Source of the DNA: Phycisphaerae bacterium
Lineage (GTDB): Bacteria; Planctomycetota; Phycisphaerae; Sedimentisphaerales; Anaerobacaceae
DNA: 64,000 bases
Assembly: GCA_030619925.1 (NCBI GenBank)
Contig: JAUXAL010000008.1
Coordinates: 1,509-65,508 of the forward strand
Direction: 5' to 3'
A program made the translations under genes and the position numbers. The notes beneath the pieces are model-generated. The model saw only the letters and a program-made list of their open reading frames with translations, did no database searches and had not been told where the DNA came from. Below, piece after piece: positions 23,840-63,152 of the stretch (the stretch's first letter is position 1; every line of letters begins with the position of its first letter).

Positions 23840-23859
23840 AATACCCTTGAAAAATTTGG

Positions 23860-23968
23860 TTTTGCCAGGGGAGCGGATGACCGGAGGCAAATCCGGGCTG
23901 AAGCTGAGAAATCGCCGAGAGTGGTGACCCTACGAACCTGATCGGGTTAGGACCTGCGAAGGGAGGCA
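23860..23968 (+). promoter_or_regulatory. TPP (THI-box) riboswitch
   Basis: ccaggggagc...gggctgaagCTGAGAaatc...ACCCtacGAACCTGATCgGGTTAGgACCtGCGaAGGGAgg matches the conserved THI element core. It lies upstream of thiS-thiG-thiH. Confidence 0.85.
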
Positions 23969-23987
23969 GATAAGAGTAAGTTTGAGG

Positions 23988-25066: not shown

Positions 25067-26309
25067 CACACGGAAATATCTCGGCCCAGACATAAAAACG
25101 ATACTGGCTGAGAAGGGCCTCGATAGCAATGGCCGGCTCTGGCGCGACCGGCTGGAGAACACAAGTGGCAGGGAGGTTGAAAGAGCTTTGGCTTGCGCCA
25201 CCGGTAGCTATAGTTTGGAGAAGCTGTTGGCGTTTATCTCGCCGGCCGCTGAAGATTACCTTGAAGAGATGGCGCAGTTAGCCCGGCAGCTTACCGTTCA
25301 AAGATTTGGGCGGACAATCAGACTTTATGCCCCGCTGTATTTGTCCAATTTCTGCGTCAACAGCTGCCGATACTGCGGCTTCAATAGAGAAAATAAATTT
25401 AAGCGAACCAGATTGACCATTGAGCAGGCTCTTACCGAAGCTGATATTATCGCAGCCGAAGGTTTTAGAGACATACTGCTTGTCAGTAGTGAAGATAGAA
25501 AAATTGTTAGCATTGAGTATCTTACGGAACTTGCGAAGAAACTGAGAAGCAAATTCAGCTCTATCTCGATAGAAGTATATCAGATGGGCGTCGCTGAATA
25601 TGCAAAGCTCTTTGAGGCAGGTATTAAGGGAGTTACGGTCTATCAGGAAACATATGACCGGGAGGCATATGCATATTATCATCCTGCCGGCCCAAAGTCT
25701 GATTATGATAACAGATTAGACACTCCGGACCGCGTTGCTGCTGCTGGTATGCGCGAGATTGGATTGGGCGTTCTTTTGGGCCTGGTCCCGTTAGAAGTTG
25801 ACGGCTTACTTCTAACGGGACAGGCGGACTGGCGAGTTGAGACCCTGGCCTTAGCCGAACATGCTCACTACCTGGTCAAACGCTATTGGCGGTCGCGCGT
25901 GTCGTTTTCTTTTCCAAGGCTGCGGCCTGCGTACCCCGCCCCTGAAGCAGTGGCGGGGCAGTCCAAGCATCTACTTAGTGATAAGAACCTTGTACAGATG
26001 ATGATGGCACTGCGATTGTGCTTCGCTGATGCGGGACTGGTGCTGTCAACTCGGGAGCGCGCCGAATTGAGAGACCGTCTGATTAAACTTGGGACAACCA
26101 AAATGAGCGCGGGCAGCAAGACCTGTCCGGGCGGATATTCGGAGCAGACAGATGCCCCGCCGAAGGCGGGTATGATCAGACCCTGCGTTGCCGGGAGGCA
26201 ATTTGAAATTGACGATAGTCGCAGCCCGGCTCAAGTGGCCGCTATGATAAGGGCCCAGGGCGCCGAACCGGTTTGGAAAGACTGGGACAGCGCTTTTGAC
26301 GAAGATTAG
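25053..26309 (+). CDS. thiH: 2-iminoacetate synthase ThiH (radical SAM)
   Basis: [10 protein letters not shown] radical-SAM cluster motif, [16 protein letters not shown]-terminus. 418 aa, i.e. longer than remembered ThiH (about 377 aa) because of in-frame insertions. Confidence 0.9.
25787..25819. repeat. 33-nt perfect hairpin element (CCCGTTAGAAG ... CTTCTAACGGG) inside thiH
   Basis: 11-bp perfect stem 25787-25797 / 25809-25819 with an 11-nt loop. It encodes part of [13 protein letters not shown], which interrupts the conserved LGL / DWRV segment. Confidence 0.85.
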
Positions 26310-26404: not shown

Positions 26405-29400
26405 TCATGCCCGCCTTCGGTGGGCGAACTCTTTCATTGCACAATACAGAACCGGCACGACGAGCATCGTAAGTACTTCAATCGTCATTCCTCCAAAGGA
26501 AGGTATTGCCATCGGCACCATAATATCAGAACCCCTTCCGGTCGAGGTAAGCACGGGGATAAGCGCCAGGACCGTTGTGGCGGTTGTCATAAGACAGGGA
26601 CGAATTCTGCGAGTACCAGCCTCAACCACGGCCCGGCGGATCTGAGCAACTCCACGGGGCTTTTGGGCCTGGAACGACTGCCTGAGATACGTACACATCA
26701 CAACGCCATCGTCGGATGCAATCCCGAACAGCGCCAGAAACCCGACCCAGATAGCGACGCTGAGATTAATCGTGTGCACGTCGAACAGCTCCCGCATATT
26801 CACCCCGAACACGCCGAAGTTCAGGAACCACTCCCGGCTGTACAGCCATATCATTAAGAATCCGCCCGACCATGCGACAATTATCCCCGAAAATATCAGC
26901 AGGCTGGTCACGGTGGATTTGAAATGGAAATAGAGAATTATGAATATGATAAAAAGGGCCAAGGGTATAACTACGGAGAGTGTTTTCTGTGCGCGAATCT
27001 GATTTTCATAGCTGCCGGCAAAGACATAACTGGTTCCTCTGAGGTTTAGTCCGGGCAGAGAGTCAATCTTCTGCTCGGTAAGGGTGCGGCCTTGTTTTGC
27101 TGCTGTTTCCGAGGCATCCTCAAAAGCCTTGCTAAATGTTTCGGCTTGATGTTTGAGATACCGCTGACATTCTTCGACGACGTCAACCTCGGCGTGCCCG
27201 GGCTTCATATCAAAGAGTACGTAACCGACAAGAAATGTGTCCTCGCTCTTTATGGCCTGAGGACCACGCACATAGCGAATTTCCGCCAATTGGATAAGTG
27301 GTATCTGGGCCCCATCGGCTGATGGAACTAAAATCTTGCCTAACGTTTCGACCTGGTCCCGCAATTCGCGCACGTATCTGACTCTTACGCCGAATCGCTC
27401 GCGTCCCTCAACGGTTGTAGTAATGCGCCTGCCCCCTATCGCAACCTCAATAACATCCTGAACCTGCCCGATATTCATTCCATACCGCGCTATGGCCTGG
27501 CGGTTTATATCAATCTCCAGGTAGGGCTTGCCTACGATCCGGTCGGCAATTACAGCGGCCGGCTCTACACTGGGAACTTCCTTGAGAAAGCGCTCGATTT
27601 CCAGGCCAACCCGATCGATTGTGTTGAGGTCCGGCCCCTTGATCTTGACGCCCATCGGCGCGCGCATACCGCTCTGGAGCATTACTATTCGCGCGGCGAT
27701 AGGCTGCAGCTTGGGCGCACTGGTGGTGCCGGGAATCTTAGCGGCATTTACTATTTCGTCCCAGATATCATCCGGGTTCTTAATATGTTCTCGCCATTGT
27801 CTAAAGGGTCTGCCGTATTTGTCGCGTATGAGTTCGTTTTGGTCATCGCGGATAAATTCGCCGGCCTTTTTGTCGTATCTAAAGCGAATACGATGCCCGT
27901 CTTTGTCGGTCAGGTACTCCGGCTTGTAATTGATGACAGTTTCAATCATCGATATCGGGGCAGGATCAAGAGGCGACTCGACGCGGCCAATTTTTCCCAC
28001 TACCGAGTCGATCTCGGGGATGGACTGCAGGGCTATGTCCTGCTTTTGCAGGACGTCCAGACATTCTCCAATTGAGGCATGGGGCATAGTTGTCGGCATA
28101 TACAGAAATGAGCCCTCATCCAAAGGCGGCATAAATTCCTTGCCGAGTCCGGGAAAACTGTGCACCGCAGCAAACCACAATCTGTTCGACTTCAACTTCT
28201 CCGGCACAAAGAAAAAGACTCTGCCAAACCCAAGCCACACCATCAAAGCCACAACAACGACTACGCTGGGAATCGATAAGAACGCCGTCTTATGCCTGAG
28301 GCACCAGCCCAAAATGGCCGGATAGAACTTCTGGAAAACCTTGAAAAACGACAGCAGCCCACCAATCAGGAGAACGACAAACACGAGATTTCGCACTAAA
28401 CCTTTATCCGAGCCCAACGGCAGCCAGTGGCTGGCAAGTATTACGCCAACTGTGACCACTGCCGCGGCATTGGCAATCAGGGGCAGGAAACTGTTCACTC
28501 TCTTTGGGATGTAGTCTCTTGAGAGATGATAAAACCCGATTGCGCCGATGAGAACACCTATCCACCAGGTAAGCCGGAAAGCTGCTATAACAGCGACGAC
28601 AATTAATAATCCGCCCAATATGTATCGATTCAGTTTTTTGAGAGCGGCTTTTCTTGTGAACAGGATGTGGGCGGCCGGCGGGATTATGGTTAAAGCGACT
28701 ATTACCGAAGCGATTAAAGCAAAGGTCTTGGTAAATGCCAGCGGCTTGAAGAGCTTGCCTTCCGCCCCGGTCATCGTGAAAACCGGCAAAAAGCTGACGA
28801 TGGTAGTCGAGACGGCCGTTAGGACTGCACCGCCGACCTCGCTGGTCGCCTTGAAAACGACCTCGAGCTTGTTATCGTCCGGTGCTGCTTCGTCGAGGTG
28901 CTTTAGGATATTTTCACAAATGATTATGCCCATATCGACCATTGTGCCGATGGCAATCGCAATGCCCGACAGCGCCACGATATTTGCATCGACGCCGAAG
29001 GTCTTCATTGCGATAAAGCACATCAGCACGGCCAAAGGGAGCAGGCCGCTGATGAGTACCGAGCTTCTGAGATGCACCACCAAAACGATAACCACGATGA
29101 TTGTAACGAGAATTTCCTCGGTCAGAGCTGTGTTCAATGTGCCTAAAGTTTCGTAAATAAGGCCTGTGCGATCATAGAAGGGGACGATTGTCACCTGGGA
29201 AACCGTGCCGTCGGGCAGGGTTTTTTTGTCAAGTCCCGGCGATATCTCTTCGATCTTCTTTTTTACATTTTGGATGGCTTCAAGGGGATTATAGCCGTAG
29301 CGTACAACCACCACACCGCCGACGGCCTCGGCTCCACCCTTGTCCAGCGCGCCTCGCCGCAGTGCAGGCCCGTATGACACCTTCGCTATATCTTTAATGT

Positions 29401-30265
29401 AGACCGGGACATTCTCGTTAACCTTTATTACGGACATTTCTATGTCTGAAAGGTCCTCGATAAAGCCCAGGCCACGAATTACATACTCGACTCTATTAAT
29501 CTCAATCGTCCTGGCTCCGACGTCAATGTTGGACATCTTGACCGCCATAAATATTTCGTCCAAGCCAACGTTGTAGGCTCGCATCGCGTCGGGGTCCACG
29601 TCAATCTGATACTCTTTAACAAAACCACCCACGGAGGCTACTTCACTTATGCCCTCGGCAGAGAGCAAGGCATAGCGCACATACCAGTCCTGGACAGTCC
29701 GCAGCTCGTCCAGACCCCACCCTCCGGTCGGATTGCCTTGCTCATCTCGACCTTCGAGCGTATACCAGAAGATTTGTCCCAGTGCAGTTGCATCAGGCCC
29801 CAGAGCGGGCTGGACTTCTGCGGGCAGTGAACCGGTGGGTAAGCTGTTGAGCTTCTCCAGGACCCTGCTTCGTGACCAGTAGAAATCCACATCGTCCTCG
29901 AAGATAATGTAAATCGAGGAGAAACCAAAAAATGAGTAACTGCGAATAGTCCTGACCCCGGGAATACCCAGAAGCGAGACGGTCAGAGGATATGATATTT
30001 GGTCTTCCACATCCTGTGGCGAACGACCCATCCATTGGGTAAAGACTATCTGCTGGTTTTCCCCGATGTCCGGTATCGCATCGACCGGCACAGGGTCGCG
30101 AGGCAGACCCCAAAGGTCCCAGTCAAATGGGGCAACCATGACACCCCATCCGAGGAACATTATTACTAAAAGTCCCACAATCAGCTTATTCTCAAGGCAA
30201 AATCGTATTACCTTGTCTATCGGCGATTGTTTCTGAGCAAGCAGTCCGTCCATAATTTCATTCAC
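26405..30265 (-). CDS. cusA: CusA/CzcA-family heavy-metal efflux RND transporter
   Basis: 1286-aa ORF with 12-TM RND architecture and two large periplasmic loops. It is clustered with a CusB-like adaptor, a YHS protein and CsoR. Confidence 0.8.
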   Translation of the reverse strand: MNEIMDGLLAQKQSPIDKVIRFCLENKLIVGLLVIMFLGWGVMVAPFDWDLWGLPRDPVPVDAIPDIGENQQIVFTQWMGRSPQDVEDQISYPLTVSLLGIPGVRTIRSYSFFGFSSIYIIFEDDVDFYWSRSRVLEKLNSLPTGSLPAEVQPALGPDATALGQIFWYTLEGRDEQGNPTGGWGLDELRTVQDWYVRYALLSAEGISEVASVGGFVKEYQIDVDPDAMRAYNVGLDEIFMAVKMSNIDVGARTIEINRVEYVIRGLGFIEDLSDIEMSVIKVNENVPVYIKDIAKVSYGPALRRGALDKGGAEAVGGVVVVRYGYNPLEAIQNVKKKIEEISPGLDKKTLPDGTVSQVTIVPFYDRTGLIYETLGTLNTALTEEILVTIIVVIVLVVHLRSSVLISGLLPLAVLMCFIAMKTFGVDANIVALSGIAIAIGTMVDMGIIICENILKHLDEAAPDDNKLEVVFKATSEVGGAVLTAVSTTIVSFLPVFTMTGAEGKLFKPLAFTKTFALIASVIVALTIIPPAAHILFTRKAALKKLNRYILGGLLIVVAVIAAFRLTWWIGVLIGAIGFYHLSRDYIPKRVNSFLPLIANAAAVVTVGVILASHWLPLGSDKGLVRNLVFVVLLIGGLLSFFKVFQKFYPAILGWCLRHKTAFLSIPSVVVVVALMVWLGFGRVFFFVPEKLKSNRLWFAAVHSFPGLGKEFMPPLDEGSFLYMPTTMPHASIGECLDVLQKQDIALQSIPEIDSVVGKIGRVESPLDPAPISMIETVINYKPEYLTDKDGHRIRFRYDKKAGEFIRDDQNELIRDKYGRPFRQWREHIKNPDDIWDEIVNAAKIPGTTSAPKLQPIAARIVMLQSGMRAPMGVKIKGPDLNTIDRVGLEIERFLKEVPSVEPAAVIADRIVGKPYLEIDINRQAIARYGMNIGQVQDVIEVAIGGRRITTTVEGRERFGVRVRYVRELRDQVETLGKILVPSADGAQIPLIQLAEIRYVRGPQAIKSEDTFLVGYVLFDMKPGHAEVDVVEECQRYLKHQAETFSKAFEDASETAAKQGRTLTEQKIDSLPGLNLRGTSYVFAGSYENQIRAQKTLSVVIPLALFIIFIILYFHFKSTVTSLLIFSGIIVAWSGGFLMIWLYSREWFLNFGVFGVNMRELFDVHTINLSVAIWVGFLALFGIASDDGVVMCTYLRQSFQAQKPRGVAQIRRAVVEAGTRRIRPCLMTTATTVLALIPVLTSTGRGSDIMVPMAIPSFGGMTIEVLTMLVVPVLYCAMKEFAHRRRA

Positions 30266-46883: not shown

Positions 46884-47675
46884 ATGCACAAGGCAAGAGG
46901 GTTTACCTTGATAGAGCTTCTGGTGGTAATCGCCATCATTGCGTTATTGATGGCGATATTGATGCCGGCACTGCAGCGGGTCAAGCAACAAGCGAGGACG
47001 GCTGCTTGTCAATCGAAGCTGCACCAATGGAGCCTTGCCTTTTCGATGTATGCGACTCAGAACGATGGGCGTATGTTCGCAGCTTATCACGGCGGCGGCA
47101 CTACGGACAGCGACGTCTGGGGCAACGCCCTTCGGCCGTACTACAAGGAACCTGATCTGCGCCTGTGCCCAACGGCCATGAAGGCTTACGATGAGGGTGG
47201 CTCGGTCACATTTGGAGCCTATCGCAGGTCTCGCTTGCAACATCATAATGATCACGGTCTCGGAAGCTATGGGCTAAGTACCTGGGCCGGTAATGCTCCG
47301 CTGGGAATGGAGGCACATTACCAATATGAGACTAAATATCAGTGGAGGCGTTTCGATGTTAGGGATGCAGGTTACATACCGCTGTTGATGGATGCCCAGT
47401 GGGTCGATGGCTGGGCAATGGCCGTCGATGAACCGCCGGAATATAGTGGTGAGCCGTGGCAGGCCCGCGGCGGTCACACCGGTGGTCTCAGGCGTTTCTG
47501 CGTCAACCGACACAACGGCTTCACAAACGGTCTTTTTATGGATTTCTCTGTCAGGAAGATTGGACTTAAGGAGTTGTGGGAGCTTAAGTGGCATCGAAAT
47601 TGGACCGAAGAGAGAGCCAACGCCGGCACGCCCGTATGGCCGGATTGGATGAGGAATTTTAAAGACTACGACTGA
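46884..47675 (+). CDS. prepilin-leader protein, DUF1559/H-X9-DG-like family (paralog 1 of 8)
   Basis: [30 protein letters not shown] (prepilin cleavage/methylation motif). C-terminal NRH-x9-DF and GLKELWELKWH motifs. Confidence 0.85.
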   Translation: MHKARGFTLIELLVVIAIIALLMAILMPALQRVKQQARTAACQSKLHQWSLAFSMYATQNDGRMFAAYHGGGTTDSDVWGNALRPYYKEPDLRLCPTAMKAYDEGGSVTFGAYRRSRLQHHNDHGLGSYGLSTWAGNAPLGMEAHYQYETKYQWRRFDVRDAGYIPLLMDAQWVDGWAMAVDEPPEYSGEPWQARGGHTGGLRRFCVNRHNGFTNGLFMDFSVRKIGLKELWELKWHRNWTEERANAGTPVWPDWMRNFKDYD

Positions 47676-47900
47676 AAATGATTATTAGAAAAAAGCGGGC
47701 AAAAGAGTCCTGATTTTGTCATACTTATAAAACAGGATTATCAAAAGTAAAGTAGTTCTGAAAGGAAAGCAGGAAGGAGTGGAAACACTCTGGGAATATC
47801 CGGGAAAATGTTGGTCCAAGTCCCCTAGCAATCCCCACCCGGAGGGTCTGGCTAGGCCTGCTTTCCTTCTCCTACGAGGAGATATGCAAGGAACACTATC

Positions 47901-48746
47901 ATGGGTAAACCAAGAGGTTTTACATTAATTGAGCTTTTGGTGGTAATCGCCATAATTGCGCTGTTGATGGCGATATTGATGCCGGCGCTCCAGCGGGTAA
48001 AGCATCAGGCAAGGACAGTCGCCTGTCAGGCCTTGCTGAAACAATGGGGCGTTATCTGGTCGATGTATTGCGATGATAACGATGGCAATTTCAGCAGAGG
48101 TCTTGTTGGCGGCTCTGGATGGCATCGTGGAGAATGGATAATTTGCCTGCGGTCTCTGTACCAGACAAAGACAGATATTCTCCGGTGCCCGTCGGCCACT
48201 AAACGGCACCCTAATGGAAACCAGTGGGGCAGCACGTTCTACACCTACTATATGCCGTTGGGCGGAAGCGGCAGCATAGGAGGCGGTGAAGAACCCAGCT
48301 ACGGGGGAAACAACTGGATTTATGACCCGGCGGCGGGCACAAGCGCGATTCAGGGCCGACCGGCTGCATGGAACTGGAGGACCAAAAACGTCAAAGGTGC
48401 GGCCCTCGCACCGGTCTTCGCAGATGCCATGTGGAGAGGAGGCGGGCCTTGCTATCGTACTAATGAGAGTGGTCCACTCGACCCTAAATTCAACCGCATC
48501 ATTCCGCCCGAATACGACGGTCAATGGATCAACTACTCCAACGAAATGATGCACTTCGCCATCGACCGACACAACGCGTTTGTAAACCACCTTTTCATGG
48601 ATTGGTCCGTCAGAAGAGTTGGTATTAAGGAGTTGTGGAAGCTCAAGTGGCATCGCCGGTTCAGCGTAAACGGCCCTTGGACCAAAGTCGGTGGTGTCCA
48701 GCCCAGCGATTGGCCTCATTGGATGAGAAAGTTTAAAGAGCACTAA
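47901..48746 (+). CDS. prepilin-leader protein, DUF1559/H-X9-DG-like family (paralog 2)
   Basis: [33 protein letters not shown]-x9-DW, GIKELWKLKWH. Confidence 0.85.
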   Translation: MGKPRGFTLIELLVVIAIIALLMAILMPALQRVKHQARTVACQALLKQWGVIWSMYCDDNDGNFSRGLVGGSGWHRGEWIICLRSLYQTKTDILRCPSATKRHPNGNQWGSTFYTYYMPLGGSGSIGGGEEPSYGGNNWIYDPAAGTSAIQGRPAAWNWRTKNVKGAALAPVFADAMWRGGGPCYRTNESGPLDPKFNRIIPPEYDGQWINYSNEMMHFAIDRHNAFVNHLFMDWSVRRVGIKELWKLKWHRRFSVNGPWTKVGGVQPSDWPHWMRKFKEH

Positions 48747-48877
48747 GAAAATCACCGCTGCACAAAAGAGCGCAACTGCCAAAAAGTTGATAGAAAACAC
48801 CCTATGGCAAGGCTGCGATTCACCGGCTTTAGGGCGGGAGAACCATATTTTGATACTTCGCATTAACAAGTTTAATA

Positions 48878-48906
48878 TTGCAAAAAAAACAGATTCAAGG
48901 TATAAT
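48878..48906 (+). promoter_or_regulatory. sigma70-like promoter upstream of paralog 3
   Basis: TTGCAA - 17 nt - TATAAT, 30 nt upstream of ATG 48936. Confidence 0.55.
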
Positions 48907-48935
48907 ACCTCCCAGCAAGGGGAAAGGGTGCTGGT

Positions 48936-49904
48936 ATGAACAAATCAAGGGGTTTTACCCCGTTAGAAATCAGTCGAACTTGTCTGACGACAGTCAAGAT
49001 TCGGAAGGTATCAGAGCTTCGAGCGGGATTTCTAACGGGCCCCGTTAGAGACCCGAAGGACAAAGGTTCTAACGGGGCGGGGTTTACATTAATAGAGCTT
49101 TTGGTGGTAATTGCTATTATTGCATTACTGATGGCGATCTTGATGCCCTCACTGCAGCGCGTAAAGAAACAGGCAAAGGCAGTTGTTTGCCGGTCGAACT
49201 TGAAGCAATGGGGTGTCGTCTTTGCGATGTATACCGGCGACAACGACGGCTCTTTCCCCAGTGGTGATGTTGATAACGCCCCCATTAAGGATCCGACGGG
49301 GCTGTGGATGTATGCGCTACGGCCGTACTACAGTGACGGACAGCTACGCCTCTGCCCAATGGCCACGAAACCTTGGACGAAGGGAGCCCGGCAGCCGTTT
49401 GCAGCCTGGGGGCCTATCTCCTCCTATGAGCCCGGCTACTGGCCTACTGAGCCCGACACTCCAGCGGCTAATTACCTCAGCTATGGGCTGAATGACTGGG
49501 TTCGCAATACTCCACAGAAGTCTTCTCGCGGACTGGGTGGTATAGATAGACTTCCCTTGCTCTGGAGGACTCCCAATGTTAAAGGTGCAGGTAATATACC
49601 GGTGCTTTTGGACAGCTCCTTTTTCGGGTCCGATCCATACCACACCGATCAACCTCCGGAATATGATGGTAATGTGGTGGTGGAATTCAATCAAAATGAA
49701 ATGAAGCGTTTCTGCCTCAACCGACACCAAAATGGGACGACAAACGGCGTTTTTGTGGATTGGTCTGTCAGAGAGATTGGGCTTAAGGAGTTGTGGAAGC
49801 TCAAGTGGCATCGAGAGTTCGACATATCCGGCCCCTGGACCCAAGCCGGTGGCGTCCGGCCGAGCGATTGGCCCGAATGGATGAAAAGGTTTAAAGACTA
49901 CTGA
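48936..49904 (+). CDS. prepilin-leader protein (paralog 3) with a 43-codon insertion in the leader
   Basis: MNKSRGFT[PLE...SNGAGFT]LIELLVV, NRH-x10-DW, GLKELWKLKWH. Near-identical to paralog 6 over most of its length. Confidence 0.8.
   Translation: MNKSRGFTPLEISRTCLTTVKIRKVSELRAGFLTGPVRDPKDKGSNGAGFTLIELLVVIAIIALLMAILMPSLQRVKKQAKAVVCRSNLKQWGVVFAMYTGDNDGSFPSGDVDNAPIKDPTGLWMYALRPYYSDGQLRLCPMATKPWTKGARQPFAAWGPISSYEPGYWPTEPDTPAANYLSYGLNDWVRNTPQKSSRGLGGIDRLPLLWRTPNVKGAGNIPVLLDSSFFGSDPYHTDQPPEYDGNVVVEFNQNEMKRFCLNRHQNGTTNGVFVDWSVREIGLKELWKLKWHREFDISGPWTQAGGVRPSDWPEWMKRFKDY
48959..49077. mobile_element. two adjacent hairpin (MITE-like) elements with CCGTTAGA(A) terminal inverted repeats, in frame in the leader of paralog 3
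   Basis: Unit A has a 13-bp perfect stem, cccgttagaaatc (48959-48971) / gatttctaacggg (49027-49039). Unit B has a 10-bp perfect stem, ccccgttaga (49040-49049) / tctaacgggg (49068-49077). Confidence 0.7.
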
Positions 49905-50009
49905 AAATAACCGTCCCGCAAAAACGAACAAAAAAATACGATTTTGCCGAACTTATACAACAAAATTGCGAAAAGGAAAGCGGCGAAAAGACACCGAAGG
50001 AGTATTGGA

Positions 50010-50933
50010 ATGGATAAACGAAAAGGGTTTACCCCGTTAGAAAGAAATCGGATTCGGAAGGTACCAGAGCTTCGAGGGCGAGTTCTCCGCAGTCCACAGG
50101 ATGGCCAAGCCCAGATGGCCAAGCCCATAACGGGGTTTACCTTAATAGAACTTTTGGTTGTAATCGCCATTATTGCGTTACTGATGGCGATCTTGATGCC
50201 CGCACTACAGCGGGTAAAGAAACAGGCACGAGGGGTCGCTTGCCAGATGAACCTCAAACAGTGGGGCATTATCTGGGCAATGTATTGTGGCGATAACGAC
50301 GGCTACTGGCTTAGCGGCGAAGGCCGTGGCAGCGGCAGATGGTGGTTCCAGCCGATGAGTGAGCTCTACACTGTTGAGGCAAAGATACGGGTCTGTCCCC
50401 AGGCCGCTAAACCTTCCGGTCGCGGGAAAATAGGTGCGTGGGCGGATCATGCTTGGATAGTCACAGACCCAGGCATTGAATATATAGGCAGCTACGGCCC
50501 GAATGGGTGGATGTGCAACCATCGGCCGGGAGCGTCAACAGTATGGAGCCGCCCGACTAAGGATAGTCAAGGCAGGCTGATGCATTGGAAGACCCCCAAT
50601 GTTCAGGGTGCGGACAATATACCGTTATTTACCGGTAGTTGGTGGGTTGATGCCTGGCCAAGGGACAATGACCAACCTCCTGATATTACAGCCACCTACG
50701 CGGCGATCCCGGATAGGCCTAATACAAATGAAATGGAGCGCAATTGCGTCAACCGGCACGGTGGATTCTTAAACGGCCTTTTTTGCGATTGGTCCGCCAG
50801 AAAAATTGGACTTAAGGAGCTCTGGACATTAAAGTGGCATAGAACTTACGACATAAACGGCCCCTGGACCAAAGCCGGCAATGCCCAGCCAAGCGACTGG
50901 CCGATGTGGATGAGAAGCTTTAAGGATTACTAA
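50010..50933 (+). CDS. prepilin-leader protein (paralog 4) with a 36-codon insertion in the leader
   Basis: AAGGAG RBS then MDKRKGFT[PLERN...KPITGFT]LIELLVV, NRH-x9-DW. An alternative internal start, [14 protein letters not shown], is possible. Confidence 0.8.
50034..50132. mobile_element. 99-nt insertion flanked by the 9-bp direct repeat GGGTTTACC, with termini CCGTTAG / ATAACGG
   Basis: GGGTTTACC at 50025-50033 and 50133-50141. The interior shares gattcggaaggtaYcagagcttcgag with the element in paralog 3. Confidence 0.7.
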
Positions 50934-50977
50934 TAACGCTTCCAACGCAACGAAGGGATACGAAACGAATATCATTT

Positions 50978-51796
50978 ATGAACAAACAAAAAGGGTTCAC
51001 CTTAATAGAACTTTTGGTGGTAATCGCTATCATTGCGCTGTTGATGGCCATATTGATGCCGGCGCTGCAGCGTGTCAAGAAACAGGCAAAAGCCGTTGTT
51101 TGCCAGTCAAACCTCAAGCAATGGGGCACTATCTTTGCCATGTACACCAACGACAACAACGGCTTCTTTTCCAGACGCACGCAGTCGGGCGGTCGTTGGA
51201 TAAATGTCCTGTACGACTACTACTATCGGGAGGAGAAGATACGCGTCTGCCCGATGGCGACAAAAATTAAGGTCCCGTACCCGCCCGGGTCCACTAGCAC
51301 ACTTGTAGTAGGTGGCGACAAATTTACGTCATGGGGCAAGATCGGTATGACGCCAAACGAAAGTTGGGGGCCAGTCGGTACCTACGGCAGCTACGGGATA
51401 AATGGCTACCTTTATGTGCCAGGGAGCGACCCATTGTACGGAAAGCCGGCTGATTATTACTGGAGAACTCCTAATGTCAAGGGTGGATATAATATACCGA
51501 TGTTTCTGGACGGCTGGTTCTTTTGCGGCTGGCCAGAGCATACCAATACCCCCCCGAACTACGATGGAGACAGATGGGCAAGTGACGCAAATGCAATGAA
51601 CCGTTTCTGCATCAACCGTCACGACGGATTCATAAACGGCCTTTTTTGCGATTGGTCCGCCAGAAAAATTGGACTTAAGGAGCTCTGGACATTAAAGTGG
51701 CATAGAACTTACGACATAAACGGTCCCTGGACCAAAGCCGGCAATGCCCAGCCAAGCGACTGGCCGATGTGGATGAGAAGCTTTAAGGATTACTGA
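50978..51796 (+). CDS. prepilin-leader protein (paralog 5)
   Basis: [33 protein letters not shown]-x9-DW. The last 162 nt are virtually identical to paralog 4. Confidence 0.85.
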   Translation: MNKQKGFTLIELLVVIAIIALLMAILMPALQRVKKQAKAVVCQSNLKQWGTIFAMYTNDNNGFFSRRTQSGGRWINVLYDYYYREEKIRVCPMATKIKVPYPPGSTSTLVVGGDKFTSWGKIGMTPNESWGPVGTYGSYGINGYLYVPGSDPLYGKPADYYWRTPNVKGGYNIPMFLDGWFFCGWPEHTNTPPNYDGDRWASDANAMNRFCINRHDGFINGLFCDWSARKIGLKELWTLKWHRTYDINGPWTKAGNAQPSDWPMWMRSFKDY

Positions 51797-51840
51797 TAAC
51801 GTTTCCAAAGCGGCGAGGAGATACAGAGCGAATGTCATTT

Positions 51841-52698
51841 ATGAACAAACTAAAAGGGTTTACCCGCCATACGCGTGGCGGGTTTACCTTAATAGAACTT
51901 TTGGTGGTAATCGCTATCATTGCGCTATTGATGGCGATACTAATGCCCGCACTGCAGCGGGTGAAGAAGCAGGCACAAGCAGTTAAGTGTCAGGCACACC
52001 TTAAACAATGGGGTGTCGTCTTTGCGATGTATACCGGCGACAACGACGGCTCTTTCCCCAGTGGTGATAACACCGCTCCTAATGATCCGACGGGAATGTG
52101 GATGTATGTGCTACGGCCGTACTACAGTGACGGACAGCTACGCCTCTGCCCAATGGCCACGAAACCTTCGAATAAGGGAGCCCGGCAGCCGTTTGCAGCG
52201 TGGGGGCCCATCTCCTCCTATGAGCCCGGCTACTGGCCTACTGAGCCCGACACTCCAGCGGCTAATTACCTCAGCTATGGGCTGAATGACTGGGTTCGCA
52301 ATGATCCACGGACGTCTTCTCGTGGACTGGGTGGTATAGATAGACTTCCCTTGCTCTGGAGGACTCCCAATGTTAAAGGTGCAGGTAATATACCGGTGCT
52401 TTTGGACAGCTCCTTTTTCGGGTCCGATCCATACCACACTGATCAACCTCCGGAATATGATGGTAATGTGGTGGTGGAATTCAATCAAAATGAAATGAAG
52501 CGTTTCTGCCTCAACCGACACCAAAATGGGACGACAAACGGCGTTTTTGCGGATTGGTCTGTCAGAGAGATTGGGCTTAAGGAGTTGTGGAAGCTCAAGT
52601 GGCATCGAGAGTTCGACATATCCGGCCCCTGGACCCAAGCCGGCGGCGTCCAACCGGGCGACTGGCCGCTATGGATGAGAAACTTTAAGGATTACTAA
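51841..52698 (+). CDS. prepilin-leader protein (paralog 6) with an 8-codon leader insertion
   Basis: MNKLKGFT[RHTRGGFT]LIELLVV. Start set at the ATGAAC conserved with paralogs 5 and 7. Confidence 0.85.
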   Translation: MNKLKGFTRHTRGGFTLIELLVVIAIIALLMAILMPALQRVKKQAQAVKCQAHLKQWGVVFAMYTGDNDGSFPSGDNTAPNDPTGMWMYVLRPYYSDGQLRLCPMATKPSNKGARQPFAAWGPISSYEPGYWPTEPDTPAANYLSYGLNDWVRNDPRTSSRGLGGIDRLPLLWRTPNVKGAGNIPVLLDSSFFGSDPYHTDQPPEYDGNVVVEFNQNEMKRFCLNRHQNGTTNGVFADWSVREIGLKELWKLKWHREFDISGPWTQAGGVQPGDWPLWMRNFKDY

Positions 52699-52742
52699 TA
52701 ACGCTTCCAAAGCAACGAAGAGATACGGAACAAATATCATTT

Positions 52743-53525
52743 ATGAACAAACAAAAAGGGTTTACCTTGATTGAACTTTTGGTGGTAATTGCTATCATTG
52801 CGCTGTTGATGGCGATATTAATGCCGGTACTGCAGCGGGTGAAGAAGCAGGCACAGGCAGTTAGGTGTCGGGCACACCTTAAACAATGGGGGGTCGTTTT
52901 TGCGATGTACACCGGCGACAACGACAACAAATTCATGCACTGGAATGCAGGCGTATGGGTGGAACCGCTCAGGCCCTATTATAAAGACGTTGGTGAGGCA
53001 ATGCGTGTCTGTCCGACAGCTACAAGGAGTCTTGAGGAAGGAGCTCTTCATACGTTTGCCGCGTGGGACAGGGTAAATACGTACACCAAGGATGAGAGGG
53101 TTTATCGCGGCAGCCTTGGTATCAACAACTGGGTTTATAACCGGCCGCCGGGCGCAGACACCTCAGCTCTTATGTGGGGCAATCCCTCTGCCAATAACTG
53201 GACGGTTACCGAGATTAAAGGCGCCAACAATGTACCGCTGTTTCAAGATTGCTGGCGCTGGGGCGGTGCTCCATATGACACACGGGATAGCGCTTCTCCA
53301 AGCGGCTGGAATGAGCCTCCCCCGTATGAAGACATTTTCACGAATGGTTTTGGGCGTTTCTGTCTGAACCGGCACAATGGGACAATTAATGGCTGTTTTG
53401 TGGATTTCACTGTCAGAGCAATAGGGCTAAAGGAAATGTGGAGGCTTAAGTGGCATAGAGTATTCGATATACATGCTGAGTCGCCGGTTTGGCCGGAATG
53501 GATGAACAATTTCAGGGATTACTGA
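52743..53525 (+). CDS. prepilin-leader protein (paralog 7)
   Basis: [33 protein letters not shown]-x9-DF, GLKEMWRLKWH. Confidence 0.85.
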   Translation: MNKQKGFTLIELLVVIAIIALLMAILMPVLQRVKKQAQAVRCRAHLKQWGVVFAMYTGDNDNKFMHWNAGVWVEPLRPYYKDVGEAMRVCPTATRSLEEGALHTFAAWDRVNTYTKDERVYRGSLGINNWVYNRPPGADTSALMWGNPSANNWTVTEIKGANNVPLFQDCWRWGGAPYDTRDSASPSGWNEPPPYEDIFTNGFGRFCLNRHNGTINGCFVDFTVRAIGLKEMWRLKWHRVFDIHAESPVWPEWMNNFRDY

Positions 53526-53624
53526 GAAACAACCCTTGCACAAAAACCCACAAAAGATTATACTGGACTTGCAAGACAAAACTGCAAAAAGTAAACCAGC
53601 GAAGAATACAGAAGGAGTATCATT

Positions 53625-54437
53625 ATGGGCAAACAAAAGGCTTTTACCCTGATAGAACTTCTGGTGGTAATTGCCATTATCGCTATATTGATGGCGATAT
53701 TGATGCCCGCACTGAATAAAGCCAGAGAACAGGGCAAACGTGCGGCCTGCCTGAGCAATCTAAAGCAGCTGACACTTTCATGGATTATGTATGCAGATGA
53801 AAACGACGACAAAATTGTTAGCGGCGACGGAGGTGTTTGGCACACATATAATGGGGTCGTTGAGACCCCCTGGGTCGGCAGGTGTTGGCACAGTAATTAC
53901 AGAGGCGGCGACCAGCTACCGGTGGAAGAGCAAAAACTTGAAATCAAAAAAGGAGCTCTATGGTCGTATTGTAAGAACCTGCAGCTCTACCGCTGCCCGA
54001 CCGGTACGCGAGGAGAGCTGGTAACCTATGCTGCAATGGATTCTATGAATGGTCATCCTCTGCCGAATAATCCCAAGGGCAGAGGTGCAGACGCCGTCAT
54101 AAAGAGATTGCTCATTAAGAAACGGCTCACGATTCGCAGCCCGGATCAGAGGATAGTTTTTATTGATGAAGGCTGGGTAACACCGGACAGTTACGCTGTT
54201 TATCAAAATAGACAAGAATGGTGGGACGACCCTATGGTGCGGCACGGTAACGGGACGAGCGTTTCTCTTGCAGATGGTCACAGCGAATACTGGAAGTGGA
54301 AAGGCCCCGAGACGATAAAGGGCGGCAAGCTGCGCGACCGCACTCACCCTTCCCAGCATGTTGTGCCTCAAAGCGAGCCGGGCCACGAGGATTTGTACAG
54401 AGTCAGGAAGTCCTGTTGGTGGGAGATAGAGGGTTAG
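53625..54437 (+). CDS. prepilin-leader protein with canonical H-X9-DG motif (paralog 8, divergent subfamily)
   Basis: [40 protein letters not shown]-terminal [19 protein letters not shown] (H-x9-DG). Confidence 0.85.
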
Positions 54438-61689: not shown

Positions 61690-63075
61690 TCACGCCCTTA
61701 GTTTAACACCGGCCGAAACATCCTGCTCCCAGGTGGCCAGCTCATCTTCAAGTGCCTTGACTCTCTCCGGCTCGGCCTCGGCAAGATTCTTCTTTTCAGC
61801 GAGGTCATCATCGAGGTTATAGAGTCTTATATCTTTGCCCTGAACCAGCAGTTTCCATGGCCCTTTGCGGACGGCCCTTTCTTTTCTGTAGCGCCAGAAC
61901 AGCGTCCGCTTCGGCACTTTTCGGCCCTCTACCAGCATCGGTAGAAGGTCGATACCATCGAGCTTCAGGCCCGCCGGCAGTTTTGCCCCGGCGATTGATA
62001 CCATCGTAGCAAACAAGTCCATCCCTAAAGCCGTCTGGCCCGTAACCGTCCCGGGTTTTATTCTCCCCGGCCAATAGGCAACAGCCGGGACGCGGTGCCC
62101 GCCTTCCCATAAGCTGCCTTTGTAGCCGGATAGTGCACCGTTGGAGCCGTTCTTGGTAGCGCCGTTGTCGGAACAGAAAAAGATAAATGTCTTGCGTTCC
62201 AGCCCTAAGCGCTTGACCGTCTCGACAATTCGTCCGATACCCTCATCCATCACCTCGACCATTTCCTTATACGCCCGGGTAATCTCCTTGCCTTTGGCTT
62301 TTTTGCCCTTCCTGCCGCCACCCAGACGCTCCGGCGGGTCGTCCCGGCCCTGGTAAGGATAGTGCGGCGCCTCATGCGGCAGATACAGACAAAATGGTTC
62401 GTCCTTGTGCCGCTCTATAAAATCTATCCCGTGCCTGGTTATCAAATCAGTGCAGTAACCTTCTTCGGGGACCTTCTCGCAATCCTTCCACCAGTCTTCG
62501 AAGCCGGCCCCGTCGATATGCGAGTGATAATCAACATTGCCACTGACATAACCGATAAACTCGTCGAACCCCTGCCTGGCTGGATTGAACTGGACGTTGT
62601 AGCCTAAGTGCCACTTGCCGAAAATGCCCGTCGCGTAACCGTGTTTTCTGAGCACCTCGGCAAAGGTTATTTCTTCCAGCGCAATTCCGGTTTGTCGAGT
62701 CGGCCCTTTTGCATAGATGACGCCCTCGATGCCGCTGCGCTGCTGGTAGCGTCCCGTCAGCAGCGCCGCCCGTGTCGGACTGCACACCGGACAGTTGGAA
62801 TGATAATCCGTAAACTTCATTCCCCCTTTCACCAAGGCATCGATATTGGGCGTCTGTATCTTTTTGCTGCCATAGCAGCCAACGTCCCCGTACCCTAAAT
62901 CATCCGCCATAATCAGGATTATGTTGGGCCGTTCTGCCGCCGTCTTCGAGAAACCACCCACTTTGCCTGTTGAGCAGCCGTAGTTCGGCATCGCCATCGC
63001 TGCTGTTCCCCCAATCGCGAACTTAATAAATTCCCGTCGATTCACCCCGTTAAAAATCCTCGCTTTTTGTCTCAT
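61690..63075 (-). CDS. arylsulfatase-family (formylglycine-dependent) sulfatase with Tat-type signal
   Basis: MRQKARIFNGVNRREFIKF leader after an AAGGAG RBS, PNIILIMADDLGYGD and CSPTRAALLTG motifs. Start moved to ATG 63075, since the upstream ORF part is repeat element. Confidence 0.85.
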   Translation of the reverse strand: MRQKARIFNGVNRREFIKFAIGGTAAMAMPNYGCSTGKVGGFSKTAAERPNIILIMADDLGYGDVGCYGSKKIQTPNIDALVKGGMKFTDYHSNCPVCSPTRAALLTGRYQQRSGIEGVIYAKGPTRQTGIALEEITFAEVLRKHGYATGIFGKWHLGYNVQFNPARQGFDEFIGYVSGNVDYHSHIDGAGFEDWWKDCEKVPEEGYCTDLITRHGIDFIERHKDEPFCLYLPHEAPHYPYQGRDDPPERLGGGRKGKKAKGKEITRAYKEMVEVMDEGIGRIVETVKRLGLERKTFIFFCSDNGATKNGSNGALSGYKGSLWEGGHRVPAVAYWPGRIKPGTVTGQTALGMDLFATMVSIAGAKLPAGLKLDGIDLLPMLVEGRKVPKRTLFWRYRKERAVRKGPWKLLVQGKDIRLYNLDDDLAEKKNLAEAEPERVKALEDELATWEQDVSAGVKLRA

Positions 63076-63090
63076 ATTCTTACTCCTTTT

Positions 63091-63146
63091 GAAATCTTGA
63101 CTCTTGACTGTCGTCAGACAAGTGTCGTCAGACAAGTTTCTAACGG
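63091..63146 (-). repeat. partial copy of the CCGTTAGAA hairpin-element family in the sulfatase 5' leader
   Basis: The minus strand reads ccgttagaaa-cttgtctgacgaca-cttgtctgacgacagtcaag-agtcaagatttc. The 20-mer cttgtctgacgacagtcaag is identical to 48979-48998. Confidence 0.75.
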
Positions 63147-63152
63147 CGTTCA

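Follow-up and report, generated by a model that had tools for sequence, protein, structure and literature searches.

In-frame nested palindromic insertions, probably of mobile origin, in the leader of a pilin-like gene of a Phycisphaerae bacterium

The DNA analysed here, which we call the window, is a stretch of 64,000 nt from a Phycisphaerae bacterium (assembly GCA_030619925.1, contig JAUXAL010000008.1, positions 1,509-65,508, forward strand). It contains several prepilin-type paralogs, and the leader of paralog 3 comprises 49 residues compared with six in its sister paralogs (Table 1). An earlier note made from the sequence had described this gene as MNKSRGFT followed by 43 codons and a second GFT, and the translation of the open reading frame bears this out. 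GGTTTTACC is located at 48951-48959 and GGGTTTACA at 49080-49088, deletion of the 129 nt between them restores a plain leader of 15 residues, and the insert is, as had been claimed, free of stop codons. Paralog 3 exhibits the Gly/Phe-x-x-x-Glu motif (the slash marks the cleavage site) and the hydrophobic helix of the prepilin N-terminal domain. Profile PF07963 (N_methyl) covers residues 48-70 only (29.1 bits, cut-off 21.2), so that the second GFT alone is recognised by this profile, and TIGR02532 matches residues 48-69 (25.7 bits, cut-off 16.3). An exact-protein look-up returned no identical protein on record.

The insert can be resolved into three nested insertions with gains of 66, 21 and 42 nt, each of which is divisible by three. 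Two hairpin units had been proposed before; there are indeed two perfect hairpins, but the layout is one of three nested parts and not of two units side by side. The 13-bp perfect inverted repeat of the first hairpin (48959-48971 / 49027-49039) was found as described, while the second stem, previously given as 10 bp, is a perfect stem of 11 bp (49039-49049 / 49068-49078). Element 1 has a total length of 83 nt, which amounts to 62 nt without the nested module and to 66 nt when the TTTA repeat is then counted, and its final G has been pushed away to position 49082 by element 2. The 21-nt module in its loop is missing from paralog 4 and from the leader of the P0028 type, PLEINR-IRKVSKLRAGFLTG; an identical 21-mer lies inside the sulfatase copy, and at least 120 metagenome contigs contain a 20-mer of the module, for the most part outside GTTAGAA elements. 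Element 2 adds 38 + 4 = 42 nt, corresponding to 14 codons. Within the window, CCGTTAGA occurs nine times compared with 1.3 occurrences expected, a count that none of 100 shuffles reached.

Table 1. Positions of the pilin-like gene, the parts of its insert and the further copies in the window.
Feature	Position	Strand	Description
Paralog 3, prepilin-type gene	48936..49904	+	322 aa; 49-residue leader, then FTLIELLVV; based on ORF and domain profiles
Left TTTA of element 1 target-site duplication	48954..48957	+	Within the first Gly-Phe-Thr codons; sequence reconstruction
Element 1, main part	48958..49039	+	Left end CCCCGTTAGAA, right arm ...GATTTCTAACGGG; 13-bp perfect inverted repeat
Nested hairpin module, 21 nt	48978..48998	+	ACTTGTCTGACGACAGTCAAG, encodes TCLTTVK; in element 1 loop; missing from paralog 4 and P0028-type leader
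Left CGGG duplication of element 2	49036..49039	+	Bases of element 1 right arm; reconstruction
Element 2, 38 nt	49040..49077	+	CCCCGTTAGAG...GGTTCTAACGGGG, in element 1 right arm; 11-bp perfect repeat; CGGG/CGGG flanks
Right CGGG duplication of element 2	49078..49081	+	Reconstruction
Last G of element 1 and right TTTA copy	49082..49086	+	Makes the second Gly-Phe codons with 49080-49081
Paralog 4 copy, 104 nt, decayed (50032-50135)	50028..50139	+	TTTA/TTTA; core ATTCGGAAGGTAYCAGAGCTTCGAG common with element 1
Paralog 6 hairpin, 20 nt (51863-51882)	51859..51886	+	CCCGCCATACGCGTGGCGGG; TTTA/TTTA; same Gly-Phe-Thr site, different sequence
thiH copy, 35 nt (25786-25820)	25782..25824	+	Flanks CTGG/CAGG; in frame, adds 13 residues
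Sulfatase copy, 104 nt (63045-63148)	63041..63152	-	TGAA/TGAA; in frame, N-terminus of Tat-signal sulfatase

The CCCCGTTAGAA/TTCTAACGGGG ends are found at four loci of the window, and the further copies are all in frame. The paralog 4 copy contains a 14-nt tandem duplication (50100-50127) and contributes 104 + 4 = 108 nt, or 36 codons. At exactly the position of the thiH copy, Escherichia coli ThiH shows a gap of 12 residues, and the protein with its insert still reaches 431 bits against TIGR02351 (cut-off 380 bits). Deletion of the sulfatase copy yields the N-terminus MNRREFIK in a protein that matches PF00884 and, weakly, the TAT_signal profile (residues 38-57); this copy includes an in-frame AAGGAG-N8-ATG (ATG at 63075-63073). 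Paralog 6 had been credited with a plain leader, which is wrong, as a 24-nt insert of its own occupies the same position (MNKLKGFT-RHTRGG-FT). Its mature part is 91% identical to that of paralog 3 and its insert is different; the same insert type is also present in orthologue P0004 (locus L124). In paralogs 5 and 7 the site is empty.

The comparison with paralog 6 and with orthologues, which had been suggested as a check, revealed sites that are empty, differently filled or occupied by a remnant (orthologues with 80-85% identity). In orthologue P0005 (84% identity) the site is empty (GGTTTTACGTTAATAGAA), and P0003, P0002 and P0004 each have other fillings. Homologues P0028 and P0094 have leaders that are 22 codons longer, which equals the 62 + 4 = 66-nt form of the element, and the same pilin position is occupied in Omnitrophota (L063) and Riflebacteria (L088). 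Database proteins of the GFTPLE type, to which the earlier note had referred, do exist: FT-PLE leaders are found in 21 of the best 120 homologue clusters. The element is present in 21 of 120 homologues and in 11 of 41 prepilin N-termini, a mixed and non-random sample. In these homologues the upstream GFT decays (RFT, DVS, TFS, VLS), whereas the downstream motif invariably has Gly or Ala before Phe. Because the same loop type in one orientation accounts for 10 of the 21 PLE-type leaders, part of the spread among pilins may reflect inheritance or gene conversion rather than repeated insertion. For several of the long-leader homologues, Pfam gives a faint match at most.

The element is defined by 11-bp inverted ends, CCCCGTTAGAA...TTCTAACGGGG, with the almost invariant core CCCGTTAGA, a variable and often self-pairing loop and a total length of about 27 to 104 nt. 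A genome scan located the hairpin at a minimum of 120 genome loci in Omnitrophota, Patescibacteria, Planctomycetota, Nitrospirota and Desulfobacterota, and the core is spread over at least eight phyla, with phylum labels that are those of metagenome bins and possibly mis-assigned. A perfect 4-bp repeat flanks 67 of 123 copies, with 14 different repeat sequences, and in 54 of the 123 at least five of six flanking bases agree, compared with about 10 in a shuffled control. Among the duplications TTTA is the most frequent, representing 43% of the 67 perfect cases against a background of 1.7% (an enrichment of about 25-fold). In general, the preferred targets are of the form TTNA (TTTA, TTCA and TTGA), TTAA being rare (1 of 67). 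Core positions 2-10 are nearly invariant among 128 copies validated by their duplication, and the outermost pair shows covariation, being C-G in 92 of 123 copies and T-A in 15. Lengths are divisible by three for 32 of the 34 copies within ORFs of at least 150 codons compared with 39 of 89 copies elsewhere. Besides pilins, the hosts include ThiH, sulfatase, MiaB, ABC ATPases and intergenic DNA. As only 3 of 123 genome-wide copies reside in prepilin leaders, the prepilin leader is not a specific target of the element. The copies have the shared terminal inverted repeats of MITEs, a target-site duplication whose length is fixed and whose sequence varies, and the presence/absence polymorphism known from these elements. 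Rfam yielded nothing at the gathering threshold for the whole window and nothing at E <= 1 for positions 48850-49150, the insert had no blastn match among the plasmids and phages of cultured-organism collections, and full-text literature searches by arm sequences, by leader peptides and by element type together with phyla returned no description of the element.

Taken together, we regard it as probable that the insert does not belong to the pilin design and consists of stacked palindromic mobile elements of the non-autonomous kind. This supports the proposal of the earlier note that a mobile hairpin element has been inserted in frame in the prepilin leader and regenerates the G/FT motif; mobility is substantiated by the same ends and 4-bp duplications in the unrelated thiH and sulfatase genes, in paralog 4 and at no fewer than 120 loci of other genomes. 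The observations that had been named as contrary evidence were not made, as no downstream start codon was found within the insert, many further copies exist and relatives are without the insert.

According to the mechanism that we propose, elements would enter by a 4-bp staggered cut with a preference for TTNA, above all TTTA, and would thereby generate the 4-bp target-site duplication. In the first step, the 62-nt element would have been inserted into the TTTA of GGN-TTT-ACN (Gly-Phe-Thr); in further steps, to which we assign no order, the 21-nt hairpin module would have entered the loop and the 38-nt element the right arm at CGGG. With the gains given above the frame would be kept at each step. 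Copies in coding DNA would survive only with a length that is a multiple of three and a stop-free frame (PLE...LTG or PVR...SNG), and leaders and signal peptides would be the sites that tolerate copies best, so that copies would accumulate there.

Other explanations of the structure were considered and rejected. An insertion of the IS200/IS605 type 3' of TTAC does not fit because the flanking repeats vary between copies and match within a copy, as is the case for a true duplication. A 6-bp duplication (GTTTAC) is excluded because the left hexamer does not match at its first base, nor the right hexamer at its last. In an integron attC site the order of GTTAGAA and TTCTAAC is reversed, and an archaeal-type bulge-helix-bulge intron is incompatible with a stem that is perfect and free of bulges.

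The end of the element (...CTA ACG GGG) together with the duplicated TTTA creates the junction Leu-Thr-Gly/Phe-Thr directly before the hydrophobic helix. The peptidase site is thus rebuilt mechanically from the GGGG end and the duplicated TTTA, and the upstream Gly-Phe-Thr-x-x-Glu of the leader is a by-product of the duplication. As judged from the sequence, translation would run from the original ATG through the insert, and the prepilin peptidase would cut at the second Gly/Phe and leave the mature protein unchanged. The profile match at this position only and the decay of the upstream copy in homologues suggest that the second Gly/Phe is the functional site. The insertion is probably harmless here, since it restores the site of cleavage and the leader is removed in any case. 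For regulated long leaders, which had been offered as an alternative, the present analysis yielded no evidence.

Among the competing explanations, a conserved functional RNA or DNA hairpin, which would act just behind the start codon of secreted-protein genes by regulating translation or the stability of the mRNA or as a protein-binding site, and be kept by selection, fares best but seems unlikely to us. It would agree with the stable stems (the insert region has a predicted fold of -63 kcal/mol, z = -2.9), with covariation not only of the outermost but also of inner pairs, with the occupation of the same pilin-gene position in three phyla, and with the in-frame Shine-Dalgarno sequence and ATG of the sulfatase copy. 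However, the same element is found in the middle of enzymes (ThiH, MiaB, ABC ATPases) and between genes, pilin leaders hold very few of the genome-wide copies, close orthologues and paralogs lack the element or have other fillings, and Rfam has no match even at E = 1. In addition, 37 single-sided compared with 5 compensatory changes indicate that the core is kept as sequence and lend no support to a purely structural, RNA-like conservation of the arms.

We consider it very improbable that the insert is untranslated, be it that translation starts downstream and the insert belongs to the 5' UTR, or that ribosomes hop from the first to the second Gly-Phe-Thr as in T4 gene 60. In bypassing of the gene 60 type the codons for take-off and landing match, the take-off site is directly followed by a stop codon, and the gap is left untranslated. 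Gly-Phe-Thr codons on both sides of a strong hairpin resemble such take-off and landing sites, and the copies of paralog 4 and the sulfatase have internal in-frame ATGs as potential starts. In paralog 3, however, there is no in-frame ATG, GTG or TTG between 48939 and 49088, the first Gly-Phe-Thr is not followed by a stop codon, and the gap is an open frame. Bypassing would work without maintenance of the frame, yet of the 34 copies within ORFs 32 are in frame and stop-free, and each of the three nested parts is a multiple of three.

Least probable of all is that the insert represents an old long leader of the pilin family, comparable to type IVb pilins, or that the 10-mer is a DNA uptake sequence in inverted pairs: PLE...LTG leaders are common in the family (21 of 120), and CCCGTTAGAA agrees at 7 of 10 positions with the Neisseria uptake sequence GCCGTCTGAA, a lead only, but close relatives have empty sites, the flanking 4-bp duplications vary in sequence, the thiH copy is a true insertion with respect to E. 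coli ThiH, and uptake sequences originate by substitution and are each confined to a lineage, while the core is common to at least eight phyla.

Within the mobile-element interpretation, our best guess for the mobiliser, by analogy, is a trans-acting DDE (Asp-Asp-Glu) transposase of the IS1380/piggyBac type. Searches of 1.76 Mb of element-rich DNA and of the window revealed neither a transposase nor an autonomous copy, including a parent element with the same ends as expected for MITEs, and solo arms amount to only three in the 1.76 Mb. Long-range arm pairs (L024, L086 and L088) were dismissed as parent insertion sequences because they enclose ordinary genes. When 930 ORFs from 255 loci were clustered all against all, the groups comprised pilins, ABC ATPases, LamG proteins, kinases and sulfatases, and no transposase was among them; Pfam detected no transposase among 25 ORFs of the window, and phmmer with the ISEcp1 transposase gave no hit in 2,695 ORFs, a search of low sensitivity over a small part of each genome. 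Two features weigh against mobile elements: at 25-27 nt the smallest copies would be exceptionally short substrates for a transposase, and covariation of the outermost pair is not predicted by plain protein-recognised ends.

A more far-reaching and, as a whole, rather tentative reading is that of an undescribed transposase-orphan family of ultra-small palindromic elements, which share a 9-nt core across at least eight phyla, are mobilised in trans and live in proteins. Its hosts would be uncultured groundwater and sediment organisms including the CPR (Candidate Phyla Radiation, Patescibacteria) and possibly DPANN archaea, and its enzyme would be widely shared or travel horizontally, perhaps being of the IS1380/piggyBac type with precise excision. 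A single record, L039, is labelled as Aenigmatarchaeota. Prepilin and Tat/Sec leaders would then serve as a reversible, near-neutral reservoir, with donation of start signals or lengthening of leaders as possible consequences. If this reading is true, the elements would be parasites of a new class, residing in frame within coding sequences, and could at the same time be used to trace how DNA is exchanged between episymbionts and their hosts.

Insertion of such elements would account for the long leaders and duplicated Gly-Phe-Thr motifs in thousands of "pilin-like" proteins of Planctomycetota and Omnitrophota, which gene callers and domain models partly mishandle. It would provide a clear example of cleaved-off protein sorting signals as tolerant landing sites for mobile DNA, in which a protease site is recreated by molecular accident from a GGGG end and a TTTA duplication. 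In-frame palindromic insertions have been thought to be largely specific to Rickettsia, and the present copies point to a widespread family in poorly studied phyla. Masking the elements would help alignments, start-site calls and structure predictions for metagenome-assembled genomes.

The closest behavioural parallel is found in the Rickettsia palindromic elements, small palindromic repeats that are located in frame in many unrelated genes and leave the protein intact (PMC10969869). Similarly, nearly all copies in ORFs keep the frame here, and ThiH still scores as ThiH. Rickettsia palindromic elements, however, are about 100-150 bp long, are confined to Rickettsia and encode conserved peptides, whereas the present element measures 27-104 nt, has a clear 4-bp duplication, is conserved only at its ends and occurs in at least eight phyla. 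Rfam and literature string searches revealed no sequence relationship, so that the element is similar in behaviour but not a member. Like bacterial MITEs (Correia/NEMIS, ERIC, MITEAba12 and others), the element has terminal inverted repeats and a target-site duplication, contains no ORF, occurs in high copy number, is found nested and occasionally supplies neighbouring genes with expression signals. It differs from them in that the smallest copies (25-27 nt) are essentially two abutted ends, no parent insertion sequence was found, and the range of phyla is far wider than that of described families. PiggyBac elements have CCC ends and duplicate a 4-bp target, which is TTAA and only in rare cases TAAA, TCAA or CTAA, and IS1380 is their prokaryotic outgroup (PMC10813416). 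The left end of ISEcp1 begins with CCTAGATTCTACG, and IS1380/piggyBac ends in general start with CC(C) and are flanked by an A/T-rich duplication of 4-5 bp, similar to the CCCC...GGGG ends and 4-bp duplication seen here. Unlike piggyBac, the element prefers TTTA, TTCA and TTGA, and no IS1380-like transposase was seen in the examined loci; the link to IS1380/piggyBac is one of resemblance only. REP elements are short, high-copy palindromes that are sometimes located in genes, and their description does not mention a target duplication (PMC3733652). Like REPs and REPINs, which are mobilised by RAYT (REP-associated tyrosine) transposases, the element is a high-copy short palindrome with no transposase inside; REPs and REPINs carry an asymmetric GTAG or CGTC tag and are mainly extragenic, whereas the element is symmetric, generates a 4-bp duplication and has neither tag. 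Finally, as in the leaders of type IV prepilins and pseudopilins, the downstream junction of paralog 3 presents Gly(-1)/Phe(+1)...Glu(+5) and a hydrophobic helix, but in contrast to the short prepilin leaders of its sister paralogs, its long leader contains a second, upstream Gly-Phe-Thr-x-x-Glu.

The earlier note's reading of an in-frame mobile hairpin in a prepilin leader is supported, with refinements. Named homologues place the organism in Sedimentisphaerales/Phycisphaerae. The P3 reading frame, one of eight tandem prepilin-type genes, starts with MNKSRGFT and continues through 43 stop-free codons into a 23-residue stretch. Both Gly-Phe-Thr triplets are at the positions first proposed, and removing the 129 nt between them restores the six-residue leader of the neighbouring paralogs 5 and 7. 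The insert contains inverted repeats built on CCCGTTAGA(A)/(T)TCTAACGGG, whose octamer occurs nine times in the window versus 1.3 expected, and the region has a folding energy of -63 kcal/mol (z = -2.9). Whereas the 13-bp stem of the earlier note was confirmed, the second is a perfect inverted repeat of 11 bp, not 10 bp, and base-by-base reading of the junctions resolved the supposed two hairpin units into three nested insertions, namely element 1, element 2 and a 21-nt module, ACTTGTCTGACGACAGTCAAG. Neither paralog 4 nor the homologues whose leader reads PLEINR-IRKVSKLRAGFLTG have the module. The insertion gains of 62 + 4, 21 and 38 + 4 nt (66, 21 and 42) are all multiples of three, and the P3 insert is very probably a set of mobile elements nested in one another, with a 4-bp duplication. 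The 20-nt hairpin CTTGTCTGACGACAGTCAAG, nested in element 1, is in its own right a very abundant independent repeat of sediment metagenomes (at least 120 contigs, loci L126-L245), usually in the context TTCGAWA-(20-mer)-ATTCGAA or at the tip of other longer palindromes, and only four of 115 copies lie within a GTTAGAA element.

Features of the P3 insert and related features in the window
Feature	Position (strand)	Length	Flanks	Remark
Tandem prepilin-type genes	46884-54437			eight genes
P3 ORF	48936-49904 (+)
Gly-Phe-Thr triplets of P3	48951-48959; 49080-49088
Element 1	48958-49039 plus G at 49082		TTTA 48954-57 / 49083-86
Element 2	49040-49077	38 nt	CGGG 49036-39 / 49078-81	within right arm of element 1
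21-nt module	48978-98	21 nt		hairpin in loop of element 1
20-nt hairpin	48979-48998; 63102-63122 (-)	20 nt
thiH copy		35 nt	CTGG/CAGG	adds 13 residues
Sulfatase copy	(-)	104 nt	TGAA/TGAA	N-terminus
Alternative sulfatase start	63073-63092 (-)			AAGGAG, 8-nt spacer, in-frame ATG
Paralog 4 copy		104 nt	TTTA/TTTA	decayed
Paralog 4 tandem duplication	50100-50127	14 nt, twice		perfect
Paralog 6 hairpin	51863-51882	20 nt	TTTA	CCCGCC...GGCGGG
TPP riboswitch (RF00059)	23857-23981 (+)			57 bits
AcrB/CusA-type transporter ORF	26405-30265 (-)	1286 aa

The same ends recur in the window in thiH, a sulfatase gene and paralog 4, always in frame, which identifies a dispersed element and not a pilin feature. 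E. coli ThiH shows a 12-residue gap exactly at the position of the thiH copy, and the element-bearing protein still scores above the ThiH equivalog cut-off; a TPP riboswitch lies upstream of the thiamine-biosynthesis genes that include this thiH. Without its copy, the sulfatase begins with MNRREFIK, a textbook twin-arginine start. The sulfatase copy itself offers an alternative start, MRQKARIFNGVNRREFIK, and this Tat-signal protein may thus have gained a new ribosome-binding site and start codon from the element; similar ATG-bearing copies are present at loci L241, L144 and L199. The paralog 4 insert contains GATGGCCAAGCCCA twice in tandem and an in-frame ATG that would yield the short leader MAKPITG|FT, a leader type also seen in the homologues P0001 and P0007. 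The transporter ORF exceeds its Pfam model by about 250 aa and matches it in three separate stretches; it, too, may contain insertions.

The proposed mobility was borne out when one genome per species was scanned for the exact pattern, which gave no fewer than 120 loci. Among the loci listed, rough counts from record titles are about 33 for Omnitrophota, 27 for Patescibacteria, 24 for Planctomycetota, 14 for Desulfobacterota and relatives and 12 for Nitrospirota/Thermodesulfovibrionia, with a few each in Gammaproteobacteria, Elusimicrobia, Riflebacteria, Actinomycetota, Clostridia and one Aenigmatarchaeota bin; all these records are metagenome bins, so that isolated unexpected labels, and the archaeal one in particular, are uncertain. 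The hairpin is also present in ten IMG/VR viral contigs (L246-L255) and had no match in plasmid and phage collections from cultured organisms. L039, a 6.4-kb contig binned as Aenigmatarchaeota (a DPANN archaeon), carries it three times. Unless L039 and the IMG/VR contigs are mis-assigned, the element crosses domains and travels on viruses.

The flanks of the copies carry a transposition signature. The six bases on either side agree at five or more positions in 54 of 123 copies, compared to about 10 in a shuffled control. Since the left hexamer does not match at its first base, nor the right one at its last, the duplication measures 4 bp, and the outer C...G is part of the element. Perfect 4-bp duplications (67/123 copies) are predominantly TTTA (43%), TTCA (13%), TTGA (10%) and CGAG (9%), each with a background frequency of 0.5-1.7%. 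When perfect 11-bp inverted repeats of any sequence were sought together with flanking repeats of 4 bp, almost only this family was recovered, in loci fetched for containing it. At core positions 2-10 of the 128 copies that a duplication validates, one-sided changes number 37, compensatory changes five and other changes five. The outermost pair and the pairs from position 11 inward covary. The core thus has the look of a site recognised by a protein and set within a hairpin. A few copies (L004, L063, L125, L027, L015) have compensating changes in both arms, such as CCCCGTTACAA/TTGTAACGGGG and CCCTGTTAGAA/TTCTAACAGGG, with perfect duplications kept, and the outermost pair can be C-G or T-A, even among the copies inside the window (T-A in the thiH copy; 15/123 genome copies). 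Neither the compensating changes nor the switching is predicted by simple protein-recognised ends.

Within genes, the element nearly always keeps the reading frame. The length of element plus duplication is divisible by three in 32 of 34 copies wholly within ORFs of at least 150 codons and in 39 of 89 copies outside them. Two frames of the left arm, CCCGTTAGAA, encode PLE or PVR and the third contains TAG; in the right arm two frames encode LTG or SNG and the third contains TAA. Survival is therefore limited to in-frame copies, and to two of the three phases, matching the observation. An Omnitrophota MiaB-like radical-SAM protein (L104, 735-2360 (+)) contains a 27-nt form in frame (...TRPVRNAISNGARPE...) and is another housekeeping enzyme tolerating the element.

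The favoured target TTTA is contained in GGN-TTT-ACN, and insertion creates a left junction GGN TTT AC|C CCG TTA GAA (Gly-Phe-Thr-Pro-Leu-Glu) and a right junction CTA ACG GGG|TTT ACN (Leu-Thr-Gly-Phe-Thr). Direct reading thus upholds the regenerated G|FT, with Gly(-1) supplied by the G run of the element and Phe(+1) by the duplication. The 120 best homologue clusters include 64 short leaders, 21 PLE-type inserts (54-150 nt) and six mini-hairpin inserts. Across the whole of the fetched DNA, 11 of 41 prepilin N-termini have the right arm directly against Gly|Phe, among them those of Omnitrophota L063 and of Riflebacteria L088, where two elements lie in tandem, both samples being biased towards P3 relatives or loci fetched for carrying the element. 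Among close relatives of P3, the site is empty (P0005), holds a 53-nt element (P0003) or a variant whose arms, CCCTGTTAGAA/TTCTAACAGGG, have compensating changes (P0002), and in the orthologue P0004 (L124) and paralog 6, whose mature part is 91% identical to P3, an unrelated 20-nt TTTA-flanked hairpin at the same Gly-Phe-Thr gives the leader type GFT-RHTRGG-FT; six of the 120 homologues carry an insert of this sort. These differing fillings indicate a site repeatedly hit or remodelled. Nevertheless, only 3 of 123 copies genome-wide lie in pilin leaders; the leader tolerates the element but is not its specific target.

Translation starting downstream, which would reduce the insert to untranslated sequence, finds no in-frame ATG, GTG or TTG in P3 48939-49088, so that a pilin with a cleavable N-terminus requires translation of the insert from ATG 48936. 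The stem begins 22 nt past this ATG, which would put it outside the footprint of a ribosome at initiation, so that initiation need not be blocked. Prepilin peptidases cut behind Gly(-1), on the cytoplasmic side and adjoining the hydrophobic helix; on this basis the second site should be used, leaving the mature protein unchanged. The N_methyl profile matches residues 48-70 only, and in homologues the upstream Gly-Phe-Thr has decayed (RFT, DVS, TFS, VLS), whereas at the downstream site Phe is invariably preceded by Gly or Ala. Translation through the insert with cleavage at the second site is probable.

The window contains no transposase. In the 1.76 Mb of fetched DNA, neither a full-length element nor a recurrent transposase was found, and solo arms numbered only three. 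The 5'-CCCC ends and the 4-bp A/T-rich duplication of the element resemble those of IS1380; in ISEcp1, a member of IS1380, the left end is CCTAGATTCTACG. A likeness also exists to the eukaryotic relatives of IS1380, the piggyBac elements, with CCC ends and duplication of TTAA, rarely TAAA, TCAA or CTAA (PMC10813416). Mobilisation of the IS1380/piggyBac type is a tentative suggestion from this likeness. REPs within genes are on record (PMC3733652), and in-frame life inside genes has been described for Rickettsia palindromic elements (PMC10969869). With no match in Rfam and no description found in the literature, the element is outside any described family found. Its behaviour is that of an RPE or MITE, but it is unusual in its very small size (down to 25-27 nt), its missing parent element in the DNA fetched, its identical 9-nt core over many phyla, its covarying outer pair and its rebuilding of a protease site.
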